64,000 nucleotides of DNA from an uncultured Candidatus Saccharibacteria bacterium (GTDB lineage Bacteria > Patescibacteriota > Minisyncoccia > Phycocordibacterales > UBA5272): positions 67,732-131,731 of the forward strand of contig CAYJED010000001.1 of NCBI GenBank assembly GCA_964369115.1, in the 5' to 3' direction. The notes under the pieces were generated by a model that saw only the letters and a list, made by a program, of their open reading frames with translations, was not told where the DNA came from and did no database searches. The position numbers were made by a program, and so were the translations under genes. Shown one piece after another: positions 4,497 to 48,327 of the stretch; position 1 is the stretch's first letter, and every line of letters starts with the position of its first letter.

Positions 4497-5909
4497 ATGC
4501 TTCCAGTTGCCATTCTTCTTTATACGCTTGTTATGGTTGCTATTGGTATCTATGCTGCACGTAAGGTAAAAAATTCTGAAGACTATGTGCTTGCAGGTCG
4601 CTCACTTCCTTTTTATATGGCGCTTGCTACTGTGTTTGCAACATGGTTTGGAAGTGAAAGTATTATGGGGGTAGGGAGTAAGTTTGCAGAAGGAGGTTTT
4701 TCAAACATCCTGGAAGATCCGTTTGGTGCCGCGCTATGTCTTATCATCGCCGGTATTTTTTTTAACAGAAAGTTATATCGACTTAAATTTCTTACAATTG
4801 GAGATTATTTTAAACATCGTTACAACTCAACAATTGCTATCTTTCTCTCGTCAGTTATCATCGTGAGTTATTTTGGATGGGTGGCTGCGCAATTCTTGGC
4901 GCTTGGTGTAGTGCTTCACACTATTATTCCAGCGCTTTCTGTGAGCTTATGGGTAGTGATTGCAGCAGGGGTGGTATCTCTCTATACCATTTTAGGTGGA
5001 ATGATTTCTGTTGCGCTTCATGACACGATACAGTCTGTCATTATTATTATTGGTCTTATTGCGGTGCTTGTTGCAGTGCTTCCGCTTGTTGGTGGCATTG
5101 AAGGATTTTCTTCTATTATTCCAGAAGGACATCTCAATATTCTTCCGACAGAAGCTGGGTTCTTGCCGTGGATTATGCTCTTTACTGCACTCATGACACA
5201 GGGATTTGGAAGTATTCCTCAACAGGATATTTATCAGCGTGCCATGAGTGCTCGTAATGAACGTGAAAGTATGTGGGCGTCAGTCTTAGGAGGAATCTTT
5301 TATTTCTGTATGGTAATGATTCCTATCTCAATTGCAATGATTGCGGCACATTTGTATCCAAATCTTTTACGTGAAGATTCTCAGCTTCTTATTACCACAC
5401 TTATTACAGAGCACACCAGTCCACTCCTTCAGATATTCTTCTTTGGGGCGCTTATCTCTGCGATTTTATCTACCGCCTCAGCTGCACTGTTGGCTCCCGC
5501 AACACTCCTTGCAGAAAATGTGATTAAACCGTTCTTTAGTGAGATGAACGATAAGGTACGCATGATACTTATTAAAGTTGGTATTGTTCTTGTGGCATTA
5601 GGTGCGGTCTTTCTTGCGTATAATCCAGACGCACACATTTATGAGCTTGTAGGGTCAGCGTACTCAGTGACACTTGTTGCAGGATTTATTCCGCTTGCAT
5701 TCGGGCTCTATGCTAAATGGGTCACAAGCTTTGGAGCATTTTTCTCTATTGTTTCTGGTATAACTTCCTGGCGTATTGCGGAAATGATAGGCACTGAAAT
5801 TCCTCCTACGTTTATTGGGTTTGTGGCATCGTTTATAGGCATTGTTCTTGGGACATATCTTGGTAAGTGGATTGATTACCTTGATACAAAGTACAAACGT
5901 GCAGCCTAA
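4497..5909 (+). CDS. Sodium:solute symporter family (SSF) transporter
   Basis: About 13 predicted TM segments. The N-terminal DYVLAGRSLPFYMALATVFATWFGSESIMGV motif is typical of SSF (PutP/OpuE/choline-type) transporters. Confidence 0.8.
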   Translation: MLPVAILLYTLVMVAIGIYAARKVKNSEDYVLAGRSLPFYMALATVFATWFGSESIMGVGSKFAEGGFSNILEDPFGAALCLIIAGIFFNRKLYRLKFLTIGDYFKHRYNSTIAIFLSSVIIVSYFGWVAAQFLALGVVLHTIIPALSVSLWVVIAAGVVSLYTILGGMISVALHDTIQSVIIIIGLIAVLVAVLPLVGGIEGFSSIIPEGHLNILPTEAGFLPWIMLFTALMTQGFGSIPQQDIYQRAMSARNERESMWASVLGGIFYFCMVMIPISIAMIAAHLYPNLLREDSQLLITTLITEHTSPLLQIFFFGALISAILSTASAALLAPATLLAENVIKPFFSEMNDKVRMILIKVGIVLVALGAVFLAYNPDAHIYELVGSAYSVTLVAGFIPLAFGLYAKWVTSFGAFFSIVSGITSWRIAEMIGTEIPPTFIGFVASFIGIVLGTYLGKWIDYLDTKYKRAA

Positions 5910-32821: not shown

Positions 32822-32893
32822 TCCGCGATAGCTCAGCGGTAGAGCAGCGCGCTGTTAACGCGTTGGTCGTAGGTTCGATCCCTACTCGCGGAG
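32822..32893 (+). tRNA. tRNA-Asn (anticodon GTT)
   Basis: Cloverleaf read by hand: acceptor tccgcga/tcgcgga, D arm gctc-agcggta-gagc, anticodon stem gcgcg/cgcgt with loop ctGTTaa, T arm gtagg-ttcgatc-cctac, discriminator G. No encoded CCA. Confidence 0.85.
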
Positions 32894-32895
32894 CA
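32877..32895 (+). repeat. 19-nt tRNA 3'-end core (gatccctactcgcggagca), copy 1 of a direct repeat (att-like)
   Basis: Identical 19-mers recur at 46886-46904 and 48309-48327. Degenerate copies lie at 49547-49560 and about 46727-46745. Confidence 0.8.
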
Positions 32896-34570
32896 TAGTA
32901 GAAAAAACATCTCTTTTAAGGGATGTTTTTTCATTTAACCCTTGTGTATCAAAGTTTAATTTAGGTTCGAACTCTGGAAAATTCACTCTCATACCTTTTA
33001 CTCCATCAATGAGTGCTTGTGTTGCTTTTGACCAAGTAATACAAAGGTTTTCTTCGTCCCAAACTAGGTTCGAACCCAGTGCAAAAAGCACCTTCCTTTT
33101 GTGATCTAATGACCCATTTTTAAGCACTTCTGCAATTGATTCAGAGAAACCGACAATCTCGTTTAACTTAGACATCCAGTCAATATCATCTGCATTTTTC
33201 TTCTTTGAGACATGCTTGTAACGCTGTTCAATATCAGCAAGGTCGGCATTGTATTCGTCGTTAGTTATTTGTTGATTACGAAGCATTGCACGTGCGTGAA
33301 GTTTCTCTTCGTTGTACTTCTTTTTATCTTCTTCAATATTTATTTCTGCAGTAAGAGCATCCTGAAAATCACCATCTTTAAGTTGATATAAATTCGCCTT
33401 TGACCAATCAGCAAGATCAGAGGATATAGGAAAGTCAGAAATCGCAACAGAAATCAGTTCCTTAGTTATGTTTTTCTCAGTAATAGACTTATACGACTGA
33501 CGAGACTTCTTCTTACGATTGTCGTAGTGATATGAATACTCAAGAAGTTTAGGAGAAACCATTTGAGGTATATCAGTGCCACATGTAGGACAAATGGTAG
33601 ACAGAGTACAAGAAAACTTACGCTTACAGTCACATATGACCTGTAATTTAACGTCCTGAGCCAAAACATGTCCCAGTGGAGACCTTACGAGACCAGAATA
33701 CAGAGTCTTGTGATCCTGAACTTTAGGAAGCGAATGCTGACCAAGTAGACGTAGAATCTTCACATGTTCAGACTCGGTTATAATACGAGGTAGAGATTTG
33801 TGAAGTTCGTAACGCTCACCACCATAAAAGAAGAAACCTGCATAAATAGGATCCTTGAGAATCTCATAGATACGAGACCTCATGATAGGCATACCACCAC
33901 TTCTACCTCGTGCGACAGTAGTAAGGCCAAGTTCACCAACTGCGTAGTCGTACAACTTACCACCAGTAAAACCTCCTTCAAGAAACTTTCTTAATAAAAG
34001 ATTTATTTTATTCAAACGAACCTTATCAACCTTCCATTTACGATTACCTTTCTCTTCAGACTTATCATTAAGAAAACCAAGAGTAGCAACACCGTGAGGA
34101 AAACCCAAAGATGCTTTCTTAGTCTGACCTCTTTTAACATTCACAGAAAGATCACGAACGAATTGATTAGCAGAACCAAACTCAACCGACATCAAAATAG
34201 TGTTCTCACTACTGTGATAAATCTTGTTGGGAGTAATAATGCACTTAATGGTCCCACGCTGTAGCATGTCCATTATAACCCCACCATCAATCATGTTACG
34301 GGCCAAGCGATCAATTTTCCAACATACAATGCTGTCATATTTACCATTCTTAATATCTTTAATCATTTGAGTAAAAACAGGTCTCTTGTTGGACATCTTA
34401 CCTGACTTAGACTCTTTGAGGACATCAAGAATCTTAATACCAAACTGACTCGCTATCTTTTTATTTTCATCAACTTGAGAGTCGATAGATAACATTTGCC
34501 TTTCTTCTGACTCAGAAGACTTACGATTGTAATTCACTGCTTTCAACTCACCATAATTTATTTCATACAT
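32882..34570 (-). CDS. Large serine recombinase (integrase)
   Basis: N-terminal resolvase catalytic domain (AVNYNRKSSESEERQMLSIDSQ; WKIDRLARN), recombinase domain, Cys-rich zinc ribbon (CDCKRKFSC...CPTCG) and coiled coil. The last codons overlap the tRNA 3' end. Confidence 0.85.
   Translation of the reverse strand: MYEINYGELKAVNYNRKSSESEERQMLSIDSQVDENKKIASQFGIKILDVLKESKSGKMSNKRPVFTQMIKDIKNGKYDSIVCWKIDRLARNMIDGGVIMDMLQRGTIKCIITPNKIYHSSENTILMSVEFGSANQFVRDLSVNVKRGQTKKASLGFPHGVATLGFLNDKSEEKGNRKWKVDKVRLNKINLLLRKFLEGGFTGGKLYDYAVGELGLTTVARGRSGGMPIMRSRIYEILKDPIYAGFFFYGGERYELHKSLPRIITESEHVKILRLLGQHSLPKVQDHKTLYSGLVRSPLGHVLAQDVKLQVICDCKRKFSCTLSTICPTCGTDIPQMVSPKLLEYSYHYDNRKKKSRQSYKSITEKNITKELISVAISDFPISSDLADWSKANLYQLKDGDFQDALTAEINIEEDKKKYNEEKLHARAMLRNQQITNDEYNADLADIEQRYKHVSKKKNADDIDWMSKLNEIVGFSESIAEVLKNGSLDHKRKVLFALGSNLVWDEENLCITWSKATQALIDGVKGMRVNFPEFEPKLNFDTQGLNEKTSLKRDVFSTMLRE
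32902..32931 (+). terminator. Terminator hairpin downstream of the tRNA
   Basis: aaaaaacatc / gatgtttttt perfect 10-bp stem with a 10-nt loop. Confidence 0.45.
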
Positions 34571-35407: not shown

Positions 35408-36148
35408 TCAAGAATCTTTCCTGTATTTCTTCTGTCTGATTATTTTATCTACCCGAGTGTAGTCCCAGTCAAGATTAAATCTCTTGTTTATTTTCCCAGC
35501 AATCGCTTTAGTAGAAAGTCCAATGTTATTTTTAATAAGATTGTAAATTGAAAGAAGGTCTTCTTTGGTTTTTCTTATTGTTAACATTTTACTTTTAGGG
35601 TCTCGTAACTTTATCTGCATTGGTTCAATTGTATCTTTGTATCTCTTATCCAAAATATCCTTAAGTTCAGTCAGAGAAGTGTAAGGATCAATAAGTATTG
35701 CGATAGGATAAGTTTTAGAATACTCGTTTGATAATGAGAAATTCTTTTTAGAGTCGTTATTTATATTGTAGATTCCGTAAGATTTACCAAAATTAAAAGA
35801 ATCATATCCACCAAAGACAACGTACTCAGAAAACAAAGTAAGCCAAGTGTCTGAGTCAAAACCAAACTGATTACATAGTTTGGCAATAACATCAAAGAAT
35901 TTTGTAGTATCCAATCTCTCAGGTATATCAAAATTAGTATGAGCAAAAACTTCGTCTGAATCTTTTGAATCAGTAGATGTTGGGTATTCTTCAATTCCTT
36001 TTTCTGGTATATCAAATTCCTTTCTGATCTTCGTAACTTCAGACTGAAACTCGTCTGTATACACAACGTGCTCAAAATACGTAGCCATTCGATTGTCGGC
36101 CTGCACATCACTTCTATATCTAAAGTATTTCTTCTTATCGTTTTTCAT
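35408..36148 (-). CDS. Hypothetical protein (about 246 aa) on the island
   Basis: ORF with start taken at MKNDKKKYF (36148). No recognisable family. Its start region overlaps a GTTGCTACACC motif copy. Confidence 0.45.
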   Translation of the reverse strand: MKNDKKKYFRYRSDVQADNRMATYFEHVVYTDEFQSEVTKIRKEFDIPEKGIEEYPTSTDSKDSDEVFAHTNFDIPERLDTTKFFDVIAKLCNQFGFDSDTWLTLFSEYVVFGGYDSFNFGKSYGIYNINNDSKKNFSLSNEYSKTYPIAILIDPYTSLTELKDILDKRYKDTIEPMQIKLRDPKSKMLTIRKTKEDLLSIYNLIKNNIGLSTKAIAGKINKRFNLDWDYTRVDKIIRQKKYRKDS

Positions 36149-36188
36149 GGTGTAGCAACCGAAATAAAGTAAACACATTATAACATTT

Positions 36189-36222
36189 TTGACACTAAAA
36201 AATTACTCGAAAATGATATAAT
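36189..36222 (+). promoter_or_regulatory. Putative promoter (TTGACA ... TGATATAAT) directly abutting ORF 36229
   Basis: TTGACA at 36189-36194 and an extended -10 TGATATAAT at 36214-36222. The spacer is longer than optimal. Would give a leaderless transcript. Confidence 0.3.
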
Positions 36223-36228
36223 TTATAG

Positions 36229-36504
36229 ATGGAATTTAGCAACAAACCAATTGATGTGCTGAAAGAGATAAGTCTAGAACCCCTTAAAGAAACAAAGGTT
36301 CCTTTGGTGCGAGGTTACCGAGGAAGATTTGTAACTGGTAACCAAGAAAGTGTTGGCAATAAAGGTGGTCGTCCACGCAAACTCACACGTGCTGAACTGA
36401 TTGAAAATCCTGAGAAGTTACAAAGAATTATAGAGAGATCCGAAAATGGTGACACTGACGCACTGATCATACTAATAAACCTTATGGAGGGAAAAATAAA
36501 ATAA
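36229..36504 (+). CDS. Small basic protein with AT-hook-like GRPRK motif (possible DNA-binding regulator or recombination directionality factor)
   Basis: 91 aa; NKGGRPRKLTRAELIENPEKLQRIIE resembles an AT-hook plus HTH. No SD. Its first 20 nt are duplicated at 36505-36525. Confidence 0.4.
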   Translation: MEFSNKPIDVLKEISLEPLKETKVPLVRGYRGRFVTGNQESVGNKGGRPRKLTRAELIENPEKLQRIIERSENGDTDALIILINLMEGKIK

Positions 36505-36904
36505 TCCAATTGATGTGCTGAAAGTAGAGACTGATATAACAGTAAGAAACTCGGTGAAAACAGATTCAAAAAAATTGAATAGTAATTTCTGTACAGAAAT
36601 CGAGACCGTATAAACACGGATAAAACTCGGTGAAATTAATAGTGGCTCTAATTGATATACAGAAAGTGAGACCATCTAAACTTGGAATAAACTTGGTAAA
36701 AAATTACAGTAACCCAATTGATATAGTGAAAGTGAGCCCAGTTATAACAGGAGAAAACTCGGTGAAATACTGAAAGTTTAGATTGAAATAACAAATTAAA
36801 ACTCGACAAAAACAAATTCATAAATATAGTAGCCAGAATTTCAGTACTGAAATTGACACCGTTAGAATACGGTGAAAACTCGGTGAAAATTACTTCTGTG
36901 ATCC
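36505..36904. repeat. Non-coding tandem array of about 5 structured repeat units (64-144 nt)
   Basis: The constant 14-mer AAACTCGGTGAAA occurs at 36548, 36624, 36757 and 36876, with variants at 36690 and 36799. Each unit has an [A/T-rich palindromic arm]-GAAAG-TGAGNCC head, e.g. perfect palindromes tttctgtacagaaa (36585-36598) and aatttcagtactgaaatt (36838-36855). Each unit also has a short hairpin with compensatory stem changes (ccgt/acgg, caccgt/acggtg, actg/cagt, cca/tgg). No ORF. Confidence 0.8.
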
Positions 36905-37168
36905 AAGTAGAATGTACTTAGCCAAGAATTTTAGGCCTCCGATAAGTACAAGGTACCCGAGGAGAGCCAGAAAAAATTCATAGTGAAAACCGTCTGTGAT
37001 CCAAATGTAAATACTGAAAATTAGTCCAACCCAAAATGGTATTCCAAGTATAAAATAGATAACCTTAAAGGATCTATAAAGCGGTGTATTTTTTGTATCT
37101 GTAGTCATAATGATGAAATACAGAGTACCTACGTAAAAACAAAATAGGCACCCCATAGAGGTGCTCAC
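36890..37168 (-). CDS. Possible small membrane protein (about 70-92 aa)
   Basis: Hydrophobic ORF with 2-3 predicted TM helices. No SD identified. Confidence 0.3.
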   Translation of the reverse strand: MSTSMGCLFCFYVGTLYFIIMTTDTKNTPLYRSFKVIYFILGIPFWVGLIFSIYIWITDGFHYEFFLALLGYLVLIGGLKFLAKYILLGSQK

Positions 37169-37286
37169 ATATCAATAACTTTCGTTACCAATCATGTTTC
37201 CTCATAGGATGCCTATGCTGTGCACGATTGGTAACGAAATAAGCACATTAAAATGCTGATTTTGAAAAACTTATTGATATGTGAGC
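37163..37286. repeat. Long nested inverted repeat (imperfect hairpin/cruciform of about 124 nt)
   Basis: Outer 16-bp perfect IR gctcacatatcaataa (37163-37178) / ttattgatatgtgagc (37271-37286). Inner 14/15 IR ctttcgttaccaatc (37179-37193) / gattggtaacgaaa (37226-37239). Central catagg / cctatg (37203-37217). A 30-nt asymmetric insert lies in the right arm. Confidence 0.8.
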
Positions 37287-37364
37287 AAGTACATAATACC
37301 ACAAAACATTGATATCTCATAGGGTATTAGACGTAAGTTGTTCACAAGTGCCTTAACTTGGTGC

Positions 37365-37422: not shown

Positions 37423-38586
37423 ATGAACTTCAAATCAGGTACAAAATATAAGGCAGAAACACCAAGCGGACAGAAATATACCGCCTTTTTACCTGAACTT
37501 ATAAATAAAGAATTCACTTGGAAAGATCCGCAGATAGACCTACTACTTGAACAGGCCCGAGGTTGGATTGGTGAACTTAATGCCTATTCTAAATTAGTCC
37601 CTAACGTTGAATATTTTATTCAATCTCACGTAGCAAAAGAAGCCGAACAATCTAGTAGAATTGAGGGCACTAAAACTACTCTCGAAGAACTGTACCTAGA
37701 TATTGCAGACCTTACAGACAGTGAAAAAGTAAATGACCAAGAAGAAGTTAAGAACTACATTAAAGCACTCAATGAATCTGTAAAAGAATTAACTAGTGAA
37801 AGTGGCCTACCTTTGTGTACGAGACTTGTATGTGACACACATAAAATACTTCTATCGGGTGTTCGTGGGTATTCTCGCAATCCAGGTAAAATAAGAAAAA
37901 TACAAAATAAGATCGGAGGCGGACACGGCACTTTTGAAGATGCCGTGTTTATTCCACCGTCACCAGATAAAGTAGACGACCTGCTAAAGGATCTAGAAAA
38001 CTTTTGGAATAACAATGACTTACATATACCAAACCTTATAAAGACTGCATTGTCACACTACCAGTTTGAAACCATTCACCCATTCGAAGATGGTAACGGT
38101 CGTACAGGTCGCTTGATAATCATTCTTCAACTTATCTCATATAAGATGCTCGAGAAACCAACTCTCTACCTATCAGACTATTTCGAAAAGAATCGTCCCG
38201 CATACTACGATGCCCTATCAAGGGTACGTGAGTCACACGACATAGAGCACTGGATTAAGTTTTTCTTGATCGGAGTGGCCGACACTGCAAAGAAAGGTAA
38301 AGAAACACTAGAGAAGATAATCGACTTACGAATTAAGTACGAAACACTTATTAGTGGAGGTATCGGAGCAAAGAGACAAAAACTTGCACGAGAACTCATT
38401 GTGGCCCTCTTCGAGAAACCAGTGGTAACCGCAAAAGATGTTGAAAGCATATTAAATATTACTAAACCAACTGCCCACTCCCTCGTCGATGATCTAGAGC
38501 GAGTCGGAATACTAAAAGAAAAAACAGGGTTGTCTCGTAACAGAATATTCACCCTACACGAGTACTTAGCATTATTTAATAACTAA
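37423..38586 (+). CDS. Fic/DOC family protein (putative AMPylating toxin) with N-terminal inhibitory motif
   Basis: Canonical Fic motif HPFEDGNGRTGR and an upstream SxxxEG-type inhibitory helix motif (SSRIEGT). The C-terminal part is HTH-like. Confidence 0.85.
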   Translation: MNFKSGTKYKAETPSGQKYTAFLPELINKEFTWKDPQIDLLLEQARGWIGELNAYSKLVPNVEYFIQSHVAKEAEQSSRIEGTKTTLEELYLDIADLTDSEKVNDQEEVKNYIKALNESVKELTSESGLPLCTRLVCDTHKILLSGVRGYSRNPGKIRKIQNKIGGGHGTFEDAVFIPPSPDKVDDLLKDLENFWNNNDLHIPNLIKTALSHYQFETIHPFEDGNGRTGRLIIILQLISYKMLEKPTLYLSDYFEKNRPAYYDALSRVRESHDIEHWIKFFLIGVADTAKKGKETLEKIIDLRIKYETLISGGIGAKRQKLARELIVALFEKPVVTAKDVESILNITKPTAHSLVDDLERVGILKEKTGLSRNRIFTLHEYLALFNN

Positions 38587-48219: not shown

Positions 48220-48327
48220 AACGAAGCAAGTGACCTACTTCACTTGCATGTAAGATCGAATACGGGGTCGAGGTTCTACTTCGAGCAAAGCGAGGTAGAA
48301 TCGTGACCGATCCCTACTCGCGGAGCA
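48220..48327 (+). repeat. Structured arm plus 19-nt tRNA-3' core, copy B
   Basis: gcaagtga-cctact-tcacttgc hairpin, ctacttcg...cgaggtag hairpin, ggggtcg...cgatccc pairing, ending in gatccctactcgcggagca (48309-48327). Confidence 0.7.

Follow-up and report, generated by a model that had tools for sequence, protein, structure and literature searches.

A small basic protein gene followed by a tandem array of hairpin-bearing repeats in a Candidatus Saccharibacteria island

A 64,000-nt stretch of DNA from an uncultured Candidatus Saccharibacteria bacterium (contig CAYJED010000001.1; hereafter the window) contains a tandem array of short structured repeats that directly follows a gene for a basic protein of 91 amino acids (aa). 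The array is a real, conserved and rare element that is undescribed in the libraries searched. Comparison of 12 independent loci with a homolog of the 91-aa gene argues that the gene and the repeats are one inherited module, and that base-pairing between the stem halves of the repeats is under selection, the paired molecule being RNA or single-stranded DNA. Quite probably, the repeats are the cognate cis-element to which the 91-aa protein would bind. As for the mechanism, we tentatively favor a multi-site recognition array operating at the DNA level, similar to the pac site of a satellite-like island, in which the protein would bind DNA and serve packaging or mobilization.

Structure of the repeat array

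The array occupies positions 36506-36898 of the plus strand and comprises five tandem units and one decayed unit. Each unit is composed of a 17-nt head, a 4-7-bp hairpin, the box AAAACTCGGTGA and a spacer of ~13 nt. A repeat search of the window detected a 52-nt core in five copies at 36508, 36584, 36650, 36716 and 36837, with start-to-start distances of 76, 66, 66 and 121 nt and with 62-81% identity to the reference copy over 52 nt; the array period determined by Tandem Repeats Finder is 66 nt. The gap of 121 nt is occupied by the sixth, decayed unit (~36765-36811). The box has exact 13-mer copies (AAACTCGGTGAAA) at 36547, 36623, 36755 and 36876 and variants at 36689 (AAACTTGGTAAAA) and 36799 (AAACTCGACAAAA). 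Matches to the box with up to two mismatches occur in the 64-kb window only within the array, and the four exact copies observed compare with ~0.002 expected in the window by simple arithmetic.

All units lie on the plus strand. Unit 1 (36506-36569) has the head AATTGATGTGCTGAAAG, an ACTG/CAGT hairpin and the box AAACTCGGTGAAA, and scores 63.3 bits with a covariance model of the repeat. Unit 2 (36582-36645; 62.4 bits) combines the palindromic head AATTTCTGTACAGAAAT with a CCGT/ACGG hairpin and the box, while unit 3 (36648-36711; 59.1 bits) has the head AATTGATATACAGAAAG, a CCA/TGG hairpin and the variant box AAACTTGGTAAAA. The highest score (68.4 bits) belongs to unit 4 (36714-36777), which includes the head AATTGATATAGTGAAAG, the box and a CC.G/C.GG hairpin with an A·A mismatch; its ortholog in locus L004 has a perfect CCAG/CTGG stem. 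The decayed unit (36765-36811) is devoid of a proper head and ends in the box variant AAACTCGACAAAA. Its ortholog in L003 still carries the exact box, the orthologs in L003 and L012 give partial covariance-model matches, and the unit is missing from L011. Unit 5 (36835-36898; 62.6 bits) has the palindromic head AATTTCAGTACTGAAATT, a CACCGT/ACGGTG hairpin and the box, and its end coincides with the stop of a convergent open reading frame (ORF) for a small membrane protein. The linker after unit 1 (36560-36583; 2187-2210 in L003) contains an extra small inverted repeat, ATTCAAAAAAATTGAAT in the window and ATTCAAAAATTTTGAAT in L003, that is retained in the short-form clade only.

A preliminary description of this array, made from the letters of the window alone, had placed a structured tandem array here, and the array stands with small coordinate corrections (box positions were 0-2 nt off). 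The box had been taken for a 14-mer and is in fact a 13-mer. The two perfect palindromes named there are confirmed (TTTCTGTACAGAAA at 36586-36599 and AATTTCAGTACTGAAATT at 36837-36854), but the symmetry ascribed to every head does not hold, as heads are palindromic in two of the five units in the window and the remaining three are AATTGATnnnnnGAAAG. The view of the region as ORF-free is essentially correct: the ORFs that overlap the array are mechanical ones only, and no reading frame persists from locus to locus. When the array was compared with Rfam, no match at gathering score was found in the window, and at E-values up to 10 the sole match was a chance one to MIR841 (E = 9.3). Likewise, arrays of six relatives had no match in Rfam.

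Phylogenetic distribution and linkage to the 91-aa gene

A search of 5.8 billion clustered proteins returned 11 homologs of the 91-aa protein, with 41-93% identity. In all 12 loci of the comparative set, 3-6 units are located on the strand of the gene, starting 1-4 nt after its stop codon. Using nhmmer and the covariance model R1, we identified 53 units at E-values up to 0.001, all of them co-oriented with the gene, whereas strong units were found nowhere else in the 137 kb searched with the covariance model. The preliminary description had regarded the absence of any homologous array from related islands, together with a lack of transcription and of protein binding, as a sign of duplications without function; homologous arrays do occur in related islands.

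The array goes with the 91-aa gene and not with the genes for the Fic protein, the serine recombinase or a 246-aa orphan protein found on the same islands, as judged from loci L004 and L017 and from the varying flanks. L017 has genes for a 252-aa protein (a homolog of the 246-aa protein), a 54-aa protein and the recombinase, lacks the 91-aa gene, and has no units. In L004 the array is present, and neither the 246-aa gene nor the recombinase is upstream of the module. Both loci speak against the recombinase as the partner of the array, which the preliminary description had considered, and the same two loci led us to reject a link to the 246-aa protein. The suggested connection with a Fic regulator is not supported either, since the array persists while the cargo differs among islands (Fic and type I restriction-modification (RM) genes; methyltransferase and helicase genes; AlwI-type RM genes). 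Downstream, the neighbor of the array is a small gene with transmembrane (TM) segments, alone or with a gene for a 311-335-aa protein, and in L015 and L016 unrelated genes on the same strand.

The number of units varies from 3 to 6 between relatives, and in L004 units 2 and 3 are fused. Orthologous units are 82-96% identical, compared with 71-83% for third codon positions of the adjacent gene in the same comparisons. Spacers are variable in sequence and constant in length (~13 nt), which maintains a period of 65-66 nt; this constancy may suggest helical phasing, and we counted it in favor of recognition at the DNA level.

Further searches extended the family little. An exhaustive profile search of 1.84 billion representative proteins returned only 23 relatives of the 91-aa protein. 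When IMG/VR, GTDB species genomes and JGI metagenomes were scanned for a pair of boxes, 2 + 3 + 20 + 29 stretches were obtained; two of these (L001 and L002) proved on reading to be unrelated tandem duplications, and the covariance model R1 had no match in the box-scan stretches L018-L068. Protein-pattern scans of IMG/VR, GTDB species genomes and JGI metagenomes yielded no relative, with the candidate L010 rejected as a mere coincidence of GGRPRK. A tblastn search with the 91-aa protein and two distant relatives had no match in 50,697 phage records.

Covariation of the repeat stems

Unit anatomy and stem pairing were analyzed in 52 distinct units from the 12 loci. Two clades differ in the 17-nt head, one having AATTGATAYRTTGMAAA and the other either AATTGATnnnnnGAAAG or AATTTCnGTnCnGAAAT. 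Next come 4-5 variable nucleotides and then a 4-7-bp hairpin, whose loop of 5-6 nt is A-rich (for instance TAAAAC, TTATAA or ATAAAC). At least 12 different stem sequences were observed, and the two inner stem pairs are distributed as GC16/UA12/AU10 and GC21/UA11. The mean folding energy of the hairpins is -3.9 kcal/mol, compared with -1.35 for shuffled sequences. Stem halves pair with their own partners at -3.80 kcal/mol, but at -1.84 ± 0.23 when swapped between units, and none of 5000 permutations reached the observed value; the covariation score in a model-based alignment is 0.314, compared with 0.158 ± 0.023 for shuffles (0 of 500 reached it) and at most 0.124 for slid controls, although these shuffle tests overstate significance because the units are related to each other. 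The compensatory stem changes reported in the preliminary description thus hold across the whole set. Overall, stem covariation favors a single-stranded state of the element.

Other structural measures gave no comparable signal. The hairpins are weak and are missing in 8 of the 52 units, and RNAalifold found no consensus structure on either strand. The fold of the whole array is unexceptional when compared with shuffled sequences (z = -0.9 on the plus and -1.6 on the minus strand). Mismatches of the G·U type are not in excess over those of the A·C type (15 vs 19), and hairpin energies are equal on both strands (-3.89 vs -3.95), so that neither wobble pairs nor folding energy assign the element to a strand. 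A role of the head itself as an RNA hairpin was rejected, as palindromic heads make up no more than about a quarter to half of the total.

A repeat unit within the coding sequence

A further copy of the head, CCAATTGATGTGCTGAAAG, is located in the 5' coding part of the 91-aa gene (36247-36265, plus strand) and was designated unit 0. This 19-mer, which the preliminary description did not mention, is identical to the start of unit 1 (36506-36524). In the window, unit 0 is detected by nhmmer with E = 0.036 and gives a weak full-length covariance-model match (36247-36297, E = 0.15); the remainder of the unit has decayed in the lineage of the window. A complete in-ORF unit is found in the long-form homologs (108-110 aa) of L007, L009 and L013-L016.

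Translation of the in-ORF box yields KLGKP in five loci and ENSVK in L013, the same nucleotides being read in different frames, and the more distant homologs P0033-P0035 and P0037 read it as ENSVK or ENSVE. The in-ORF stems covary through amino-acid changes (TCTGT/ACAGA, CTCCTGT/ACAGGGG, CGCTG/CAGCG and GCTGT/ACAGC). In-ORF heads are closer to the array heads of their own locus than to those of other loci (0.81 vs 0.71, in 10 of 10 loci), a difference that phylogeny confounds. The two box frames, the covariation of the in-ORF stems and the predicted disorder of the N-terminal half of the protein argue together that the nucleic-acid element is primary and its translation incidental; what is conserved in the in-ORF unit is the nucleotides and not the peptide.

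The 91-aa protein

The alignment of homologs contains an invariant basic core, R-G-x-R-G-R-F-V-x-G-N-x-E-S-V-G-N-K-G-G-R-P-R. The N-terminal half of the protein, in whose coding part unit 0 lies, is predicted to be disordered, while the C-terminal part is predicted to form three helices, with an AlphaFold2 predicted local distance difference test score of ~85 for residues 54-86. Fold searches returned no match, and no PHROG, PADLOC or NCBIfam match was found. The only Pfam match, to DUF5681 (E = 0.012), fails the cut-off.

Profile comparisons connect the protein, at the level of its motif, to DUF5681 and to the N-termini of small terminases. Distant relatives are DUF5681 proteins, among them P0041 (36.9 bits, above the cut-off), and hhalign aligns the 91-aa protein with a true DUF5681 protein at 97.3% probability over 63 columns, including the basic motif and the C-terminal helices. 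The motif also precedes GP3_package domains or PHROG 'terminase small subunit' domains in P0044, P0049 and P0051; against such GP3_package and small-terminase proteins hhalign reports 95.7-96.9% probability, with the N-terminal part aligned. The basic arm and first helices found ahead of the core in small terminases thus seem to stand alone in the 91-aa protein, with the core itself absent. In the preliminary description this protein had been called an AT-hook protein and proposed for binding assays with the array, and it is indeed the right candidate partner to test.

An extended -10 element, TGATATAAT, can be read from the sequence at 36214-36222 (plus strand) and ends 6 nt before the ATG at 36229. 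Both the element and its spacing to the ATG are conserved in L003, L006, L007 and L009, and TTGACA is present upstream of it at 36189. Since 6 nt from the -10 element to the ATG leave no room for a Shine-Dalgarno sequence, the mRNA of the 91-aa gene is probably leaderless or nearly so, given the start site read in this way. The stretch from the gene to the array yielded no terminator-like site, and on these grounds the two appear to share one transcript.

Candidate functions of the module

According to the mechanism that we tentatively favor, each ~65-nt unit would offer the 91-aa protein a head (AATTGATAYRTTGMAAA or AATTTCnGTnCnGAAAT), a variable-stem hairpin and the box AAAACTCGGTGA, and 4-7 sites over ~650 bp, including the in-ORF unit, would be presented to it. 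By loading cooperatively on the units on island DNA, the protein would tag the 15.4-kb island, once excised or during replication, for a helper function. The likeliest such function would be the start of packaging by the terminase of a helper phage, with the array as a pac-type site that has its own minimal specificity factor. We prefer this pac-like reading because the only relatives of the protein are packaging-type proteins, because pac sites lie in or beside terS and can be direct repeats spanning a promoter and the gene start, because some satellites encode their own specificity factor, and because the island is satellite-sized and devoid of structural genes, with holin- and endolysin-like genes beside the module in relatives.

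The known precedents match in layout. The pac site of SPP1 consists of three sets of direct repeats spanning promoters and the beginning of terS (PMC4737164). More generally, pac sites are located within or upstream of terS, and Staphylococcus aureus pathogenicity islands (SaPIs) encode their own TerS (bioRxiv 10.1101/2024.04.22.590561). As in the systems of SPP1/SF6 (pacL-pacC-pacR), P22 (gene 3) and SaPIs (TerS), the direct repeats studied here lie beside and within the gene for the putative recognition protein, its 5' end included, and this placement of a repeat-bearing site relative to the 91-aa gene or its homolog is seen in 12 of 12 loci. Further similarities include the basic GNxxxxGNKGGRP motif common to the 91-aa protein and the proteins with small-terminase domains, and a host element of satellite size without structural genes. 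In contrast to known pac sites, the array has ~65-nt units, 3-6 of them after the gene, each with a covarying hairpin.

Several observations weigh against the pac-like reading. The 91-aa protein has neither the oligomerization nor the TerL-binding core of real small terminases, its similarity to them is limited to a basic motif plus helices of 33-63 residues, and it has no fold match; for DUF5681, we know of no function. The island contains neither terL nor a capsid gene, no terL was seen near the module, and we identified no helper phage, with no relative in IMG/VR or the 50,697 phage records. A duplex DNA site leaves the stem covariation unexplained, since that covariation points to RNA or single-stranded DNA, and the apparent co-transcription of the units and the gene suits a role as RNA equally well. 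The supporting evidence is, moreover, all comparative.

Because a duplex site does not explain the covariation, a reading at the RNA level follows close behind, although on balance it is doubtful. Here the gene and the array would form one RNA transcribed from the leaderless promoter, and the Arg/Gly-rich protein would bind hairpins flanked by the single-stranded head and box; the 5' coding unit would serve translational autoregulation, while the 3' units would act as a cis sponge or an assembly scaffold, or be cut into ~65-nt RNAs. It is equally doubtful that a terminase-derived mini-protein co-transcribed with 3-6 structured RNA repeats of ~65 nt and an in-ORF repeat binds them in a self-titrating circuit or in an RNA-scaffolded particle for island mobilization. 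The permutation and shuffle tests and the diversity of stems are in agreement with such a module, as are the covariation within the ORF at the cost of amino-acid changes, the co-orientation of all units with the gene that they abut, the conserved -10 element without an intervening terminator, and the disordered N-terminal half with its RGxRGRF...GGRPRK segment. Duplex DNA hardly allows stems of 4-7 bp, which RNA can form. These points are countered by the lack of an RNAalifold consensus on either strand, the unexceptional whole-array fold, the missing G·U excess with equal hairpin energies on both strands, the 8 units without a hairpin and the absence of an Rfam family. The long linear head and box, the partly palindromic heads and the constant spacer length are more typical of DNA sites, and the only relatives of the protein belong to DNA packaging. 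By analogy, the array may be compared with the lambda-type nut/N system, which also combines a small Arg-rich protein that is largely disordered with a short hairpin (boxB; variable stem, A-rich loop) beside a conserved linear box (boxA), and which has one site near the 5' end of the transcript of the protein itself. Unlike nut, the array has 3-6 tandem copies, its box has no similarity to boxA, the 91-aa protein is unrelated to N, and convergent genes follow the array, leaving no downstream terminators or operon to read through.

That the array is an iteron-type origin or a centromere-like site of the excised island, to which the 91-aa protein binds and recruits host or helper machinery, we consider unlikely. 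Tandem, phased repeats in the same orientation lie right after a gene for a small protein of the DNA-binding type, with one copy inside that gene, and both the range of 3-6 units and the fusion of units 2 and 3 in L004 are what unequal recombination predicts. A disordered basic N-terminus with a folded C-terminus may also recall small centromere-binding proteins. The F plasmid carries 12 repeats of 43 bp (sopC) after sopB, and the lambda origin lies inside gene O; the origins of SaPIs and PLEs would be further parallels. Like sopC and iterons, the array has tandem same-orientation repeats after or inside the gene for a putative binding protein and an inverted repeat per unit. However, its module includes no partition NTPase or initiator gene, and the conserved backbone of the islands has no gene for Rep, primase, helicase, ParA, ParM or TubZ. 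No DnaA box, sought as a TTATCCACA-like site with up to one mismatch, was found between 35655 and 39265. The period of 65-66 bp is approximately three times that of usual iterons, and units only 62-81% alike are much more divergent than sopC or iteron repeats. While the latter keep one inverted-repeat sequence, that of the array changes from unit to unit with compensation, and the stem covariation is not accounted for by an origin or centromere.

A guide-RNA or antitoxin-type array, whether CRISPR-like, a TIGR stem-loop array or a type III (ToxI-like) RNA antitoxin, is suggested by the tandem layout of the structured units, by the small gene next to them and by the defense cargo of the mobile element. 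This reading is already largely refuted, and we regard it as very improbable. CRISPR arrays consist of near-identical repeats of 23-50 nt separated by unique spacers of similar length. The units described here are 62-81% alike over 52 nt and their non-repeat stretch is only ~13 nt, variable parts are kept between islands, and Pfam and PADLOC revealed no Cas domain in the neighboring genes; the preliminary description had excluded CRISPR on the same grounds, the lack of a long identical repeat and of a cas gene. In type III toxin-antitoxin systems, near-identical repeats of 34-45 nt precede the toxin gene, with a terminator between them, and the toxin is a ToxN-type endoRNase. The array resembles those of ToxI, CptI, TenpI and antiQ in its short structured tandem units, A-rich segments and apparent co-transcription with a small gene on a defense-carrying element, but it follows its gene without a terminator, no neighbor has a ToxN-type domain, and its units are too divergent. 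TIGR arrays, which occur with TasA, also have tandem units with sequence-variable yet consistently palindromic segments and poor overall conservation, and have a compact protein gene as their neighbor on mobile elements from phages and parasitic bacteria (PMC12045711). Unlike these arrays, the one described here has no Nop-domain protein nearby and no dual spacers of 8-12 nt (PMC12045711). Its palindromic halves are 4-7 nt long and 5-6 nt apart, the stem closing a loop of 5-6 nt, and its conserved blocks measure 17 and 12 nt. Searches of Pfam, PADLOC, NCBIfam, PDB profiles and folds likewise gave no Cas, Nop/Tas or ToxN/AbiQ/CptN/TenpN protein. Variable parts that amount to a self-complementary 4-7-nt stem and a 13-nt linker correspond neither to dual 8-12-nt nor to 30-nt spacers, and orthologous units retain these parts between islands, so that unit content is inherited and nothing is acquired. 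Overall, the array has the defining features of none of CRISPR, TIGR, type III antitoxins, pac/terS, sopC, nut or the Rfam families.

It is hardly credible that the units are functionless, decaying duplications of the 5' end of the gene. They do resemble the translated N-terminus (IDxLK...ITGENSVK vs IDTLQ...ITxEKLGKP), and 29 of 46 units leave the homologous frame open. The conservation pattern nonetheless already contradicts decay: the array is present in 12 of 12 loci with proteins down to 41% identical, the head and box are conserved at the nucleotide level over that range and in two reading frames, stem changes are compensatory, and the units evolve no faster than synonymous sites. The open frames are explained by the conserved blocks being free of stops. 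Coding repeats or a read-through extension were rejected, as the unit period is not a multiple of 3 in most loci and the box frames differ. Tandem promoters, with TTGATA of the head as the -35 and the A-rich loop as the -10 element, were also rejected because only 7 of 52 units satisfy both.

The island and its neighboring genes

The module is part of a 15.4-kb island bounded by a 20-nt direct repeat, CGATCCCTACTCGCGGAGCA, at 32876-32895 and 48308-48327, the former copy being the 3' end of tRNA-Asn. In addition to the 91-aa gene (36229-36504, plus strand) and the array, the island encodes a large serine recombinase (32882-34570, minus strand), a 256-aa orphan protein (35408-36178, minus), a small ORF with two TM segments (36890-37108, minus), a c4-2-like RNA (37142-37216, minus), SoFic (37423-38586, plus) and, downstream of SoFic on the plus strand, a type I RM operon that contains a DUF2130 gene and a PDC-S35-like gene. 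A 204-aa ORF of the island has a weak match to a protein family of a Mycoplasma integrative and conjugative element. No phage structural or capsid gene and no terminase large subunit gene was found in the 15.4-kb island.

The conserved gene for the small two-TM protein (36890-37108, minus) converges on the array. In three relatives a gene for a 311-335-aa protein precedes it on the same strand (4250-5412 in L007, 6573-7744 in L009 and 767-1949 in L012), and the protein of L012 carries a PG_binding_1 domain. The two genes resemble a holin/endolysin pair, here on an island devoid of virion genes.

The c4-2-like RNA matches Rfam family RF02944 with 31.2 bits (E = 4e-4), below the gathering score of 41, and ends in an intrinsic terminator at 37164-37148. 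On the same strand, the RNA is preceded by two segments that can pair with its variable loops, so that the whole region spans 37142-37287; the inverted repeats are 37162-37182/37267-37287 and 37180-37196/37223-37239, and the two segments resemble the a1/b1 segments of the c4 system of P1/P7. Two 'specificity alleles' can be distinguished, one in the window, L003 and L004 and the other in L006 and L011; the scaffold is invariant between them, while a variable part of ~30 nt and its upstream complement change together. The array as a target of this RNA was rejected, as reading revealed no convincing complementarity and the c4 allele changes independently of the array.

The 246-256-aa orphan protein (35408-36178, minus; homologs P0012-P0030) is 48-99% identical between relatives and better conserved than the 91-aa protein. 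It is predicted to be all-helical, with a confident C-terminal three-helix bundle in the model, and it has no Pfam, PHROG, PADLOC, PDB or fold match. Its gene is always followed by a 54-aa ORF and the recombinase gene. This protein could be the regulator of the island. Upstream of the 252-aa gene of L017 (7800-7990), CCTGTTATTTC occurs three times within ~70 nt, and these copies in an array-less island may be operator-like direct repeats. In L004, a GC-rich, structured-looking stretch (5560-5800) separates host genes from a 100-aa gene where the island seems to end; a tmRNA suspected there on reading was rejected, as ARAGORN predicted no tmRNA or tRNA.

Three types of cargo were observed on the same conserved backbone across loci L003, L006, L007, L009, L011 and L017, which come from different metagenomes. 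The first type comprises Fic and type I RM genes. The second type combines HTH_17, an N6_N4 methyltransferase, a ResIII helicase and an SMC-like ATPase, and the third a D12 methyltransferase, RE_AlwI and an AlbA_2 protein. L011 is a mosaic, since it joins a 91-aa gene and array like those of the window (96% identical) to the other c4 allele and a different cargo. From these comparisons, the shared backbone with differing defense cargo marks a family of cargo-swapping islands.

Implications for island biology

Small integrative islands with anti-phage systems are common. The islands described here have a conserved backbone of a serine recombinase, the 246-aa protein, the 54-aa protein, the protein-plus-repeat module, the c4-like RNA and sometimes lysis genes, around which cargo is freely exchanged. 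Whichever reading of the module holds, the in-ORF unit provides a clean example of selection at the nucleic-acid level that overrides protein sequence. If the units act as RNA, they would represent a new kind of protein-RNA repeat module. If the module is instead a recognition or packaging signal, the 91-aa protein would represent a terminase N-terminus turned into a minimal specificity factor, and the module would offer a direct experimental handle on island mobilization in uncultivated bacteria.

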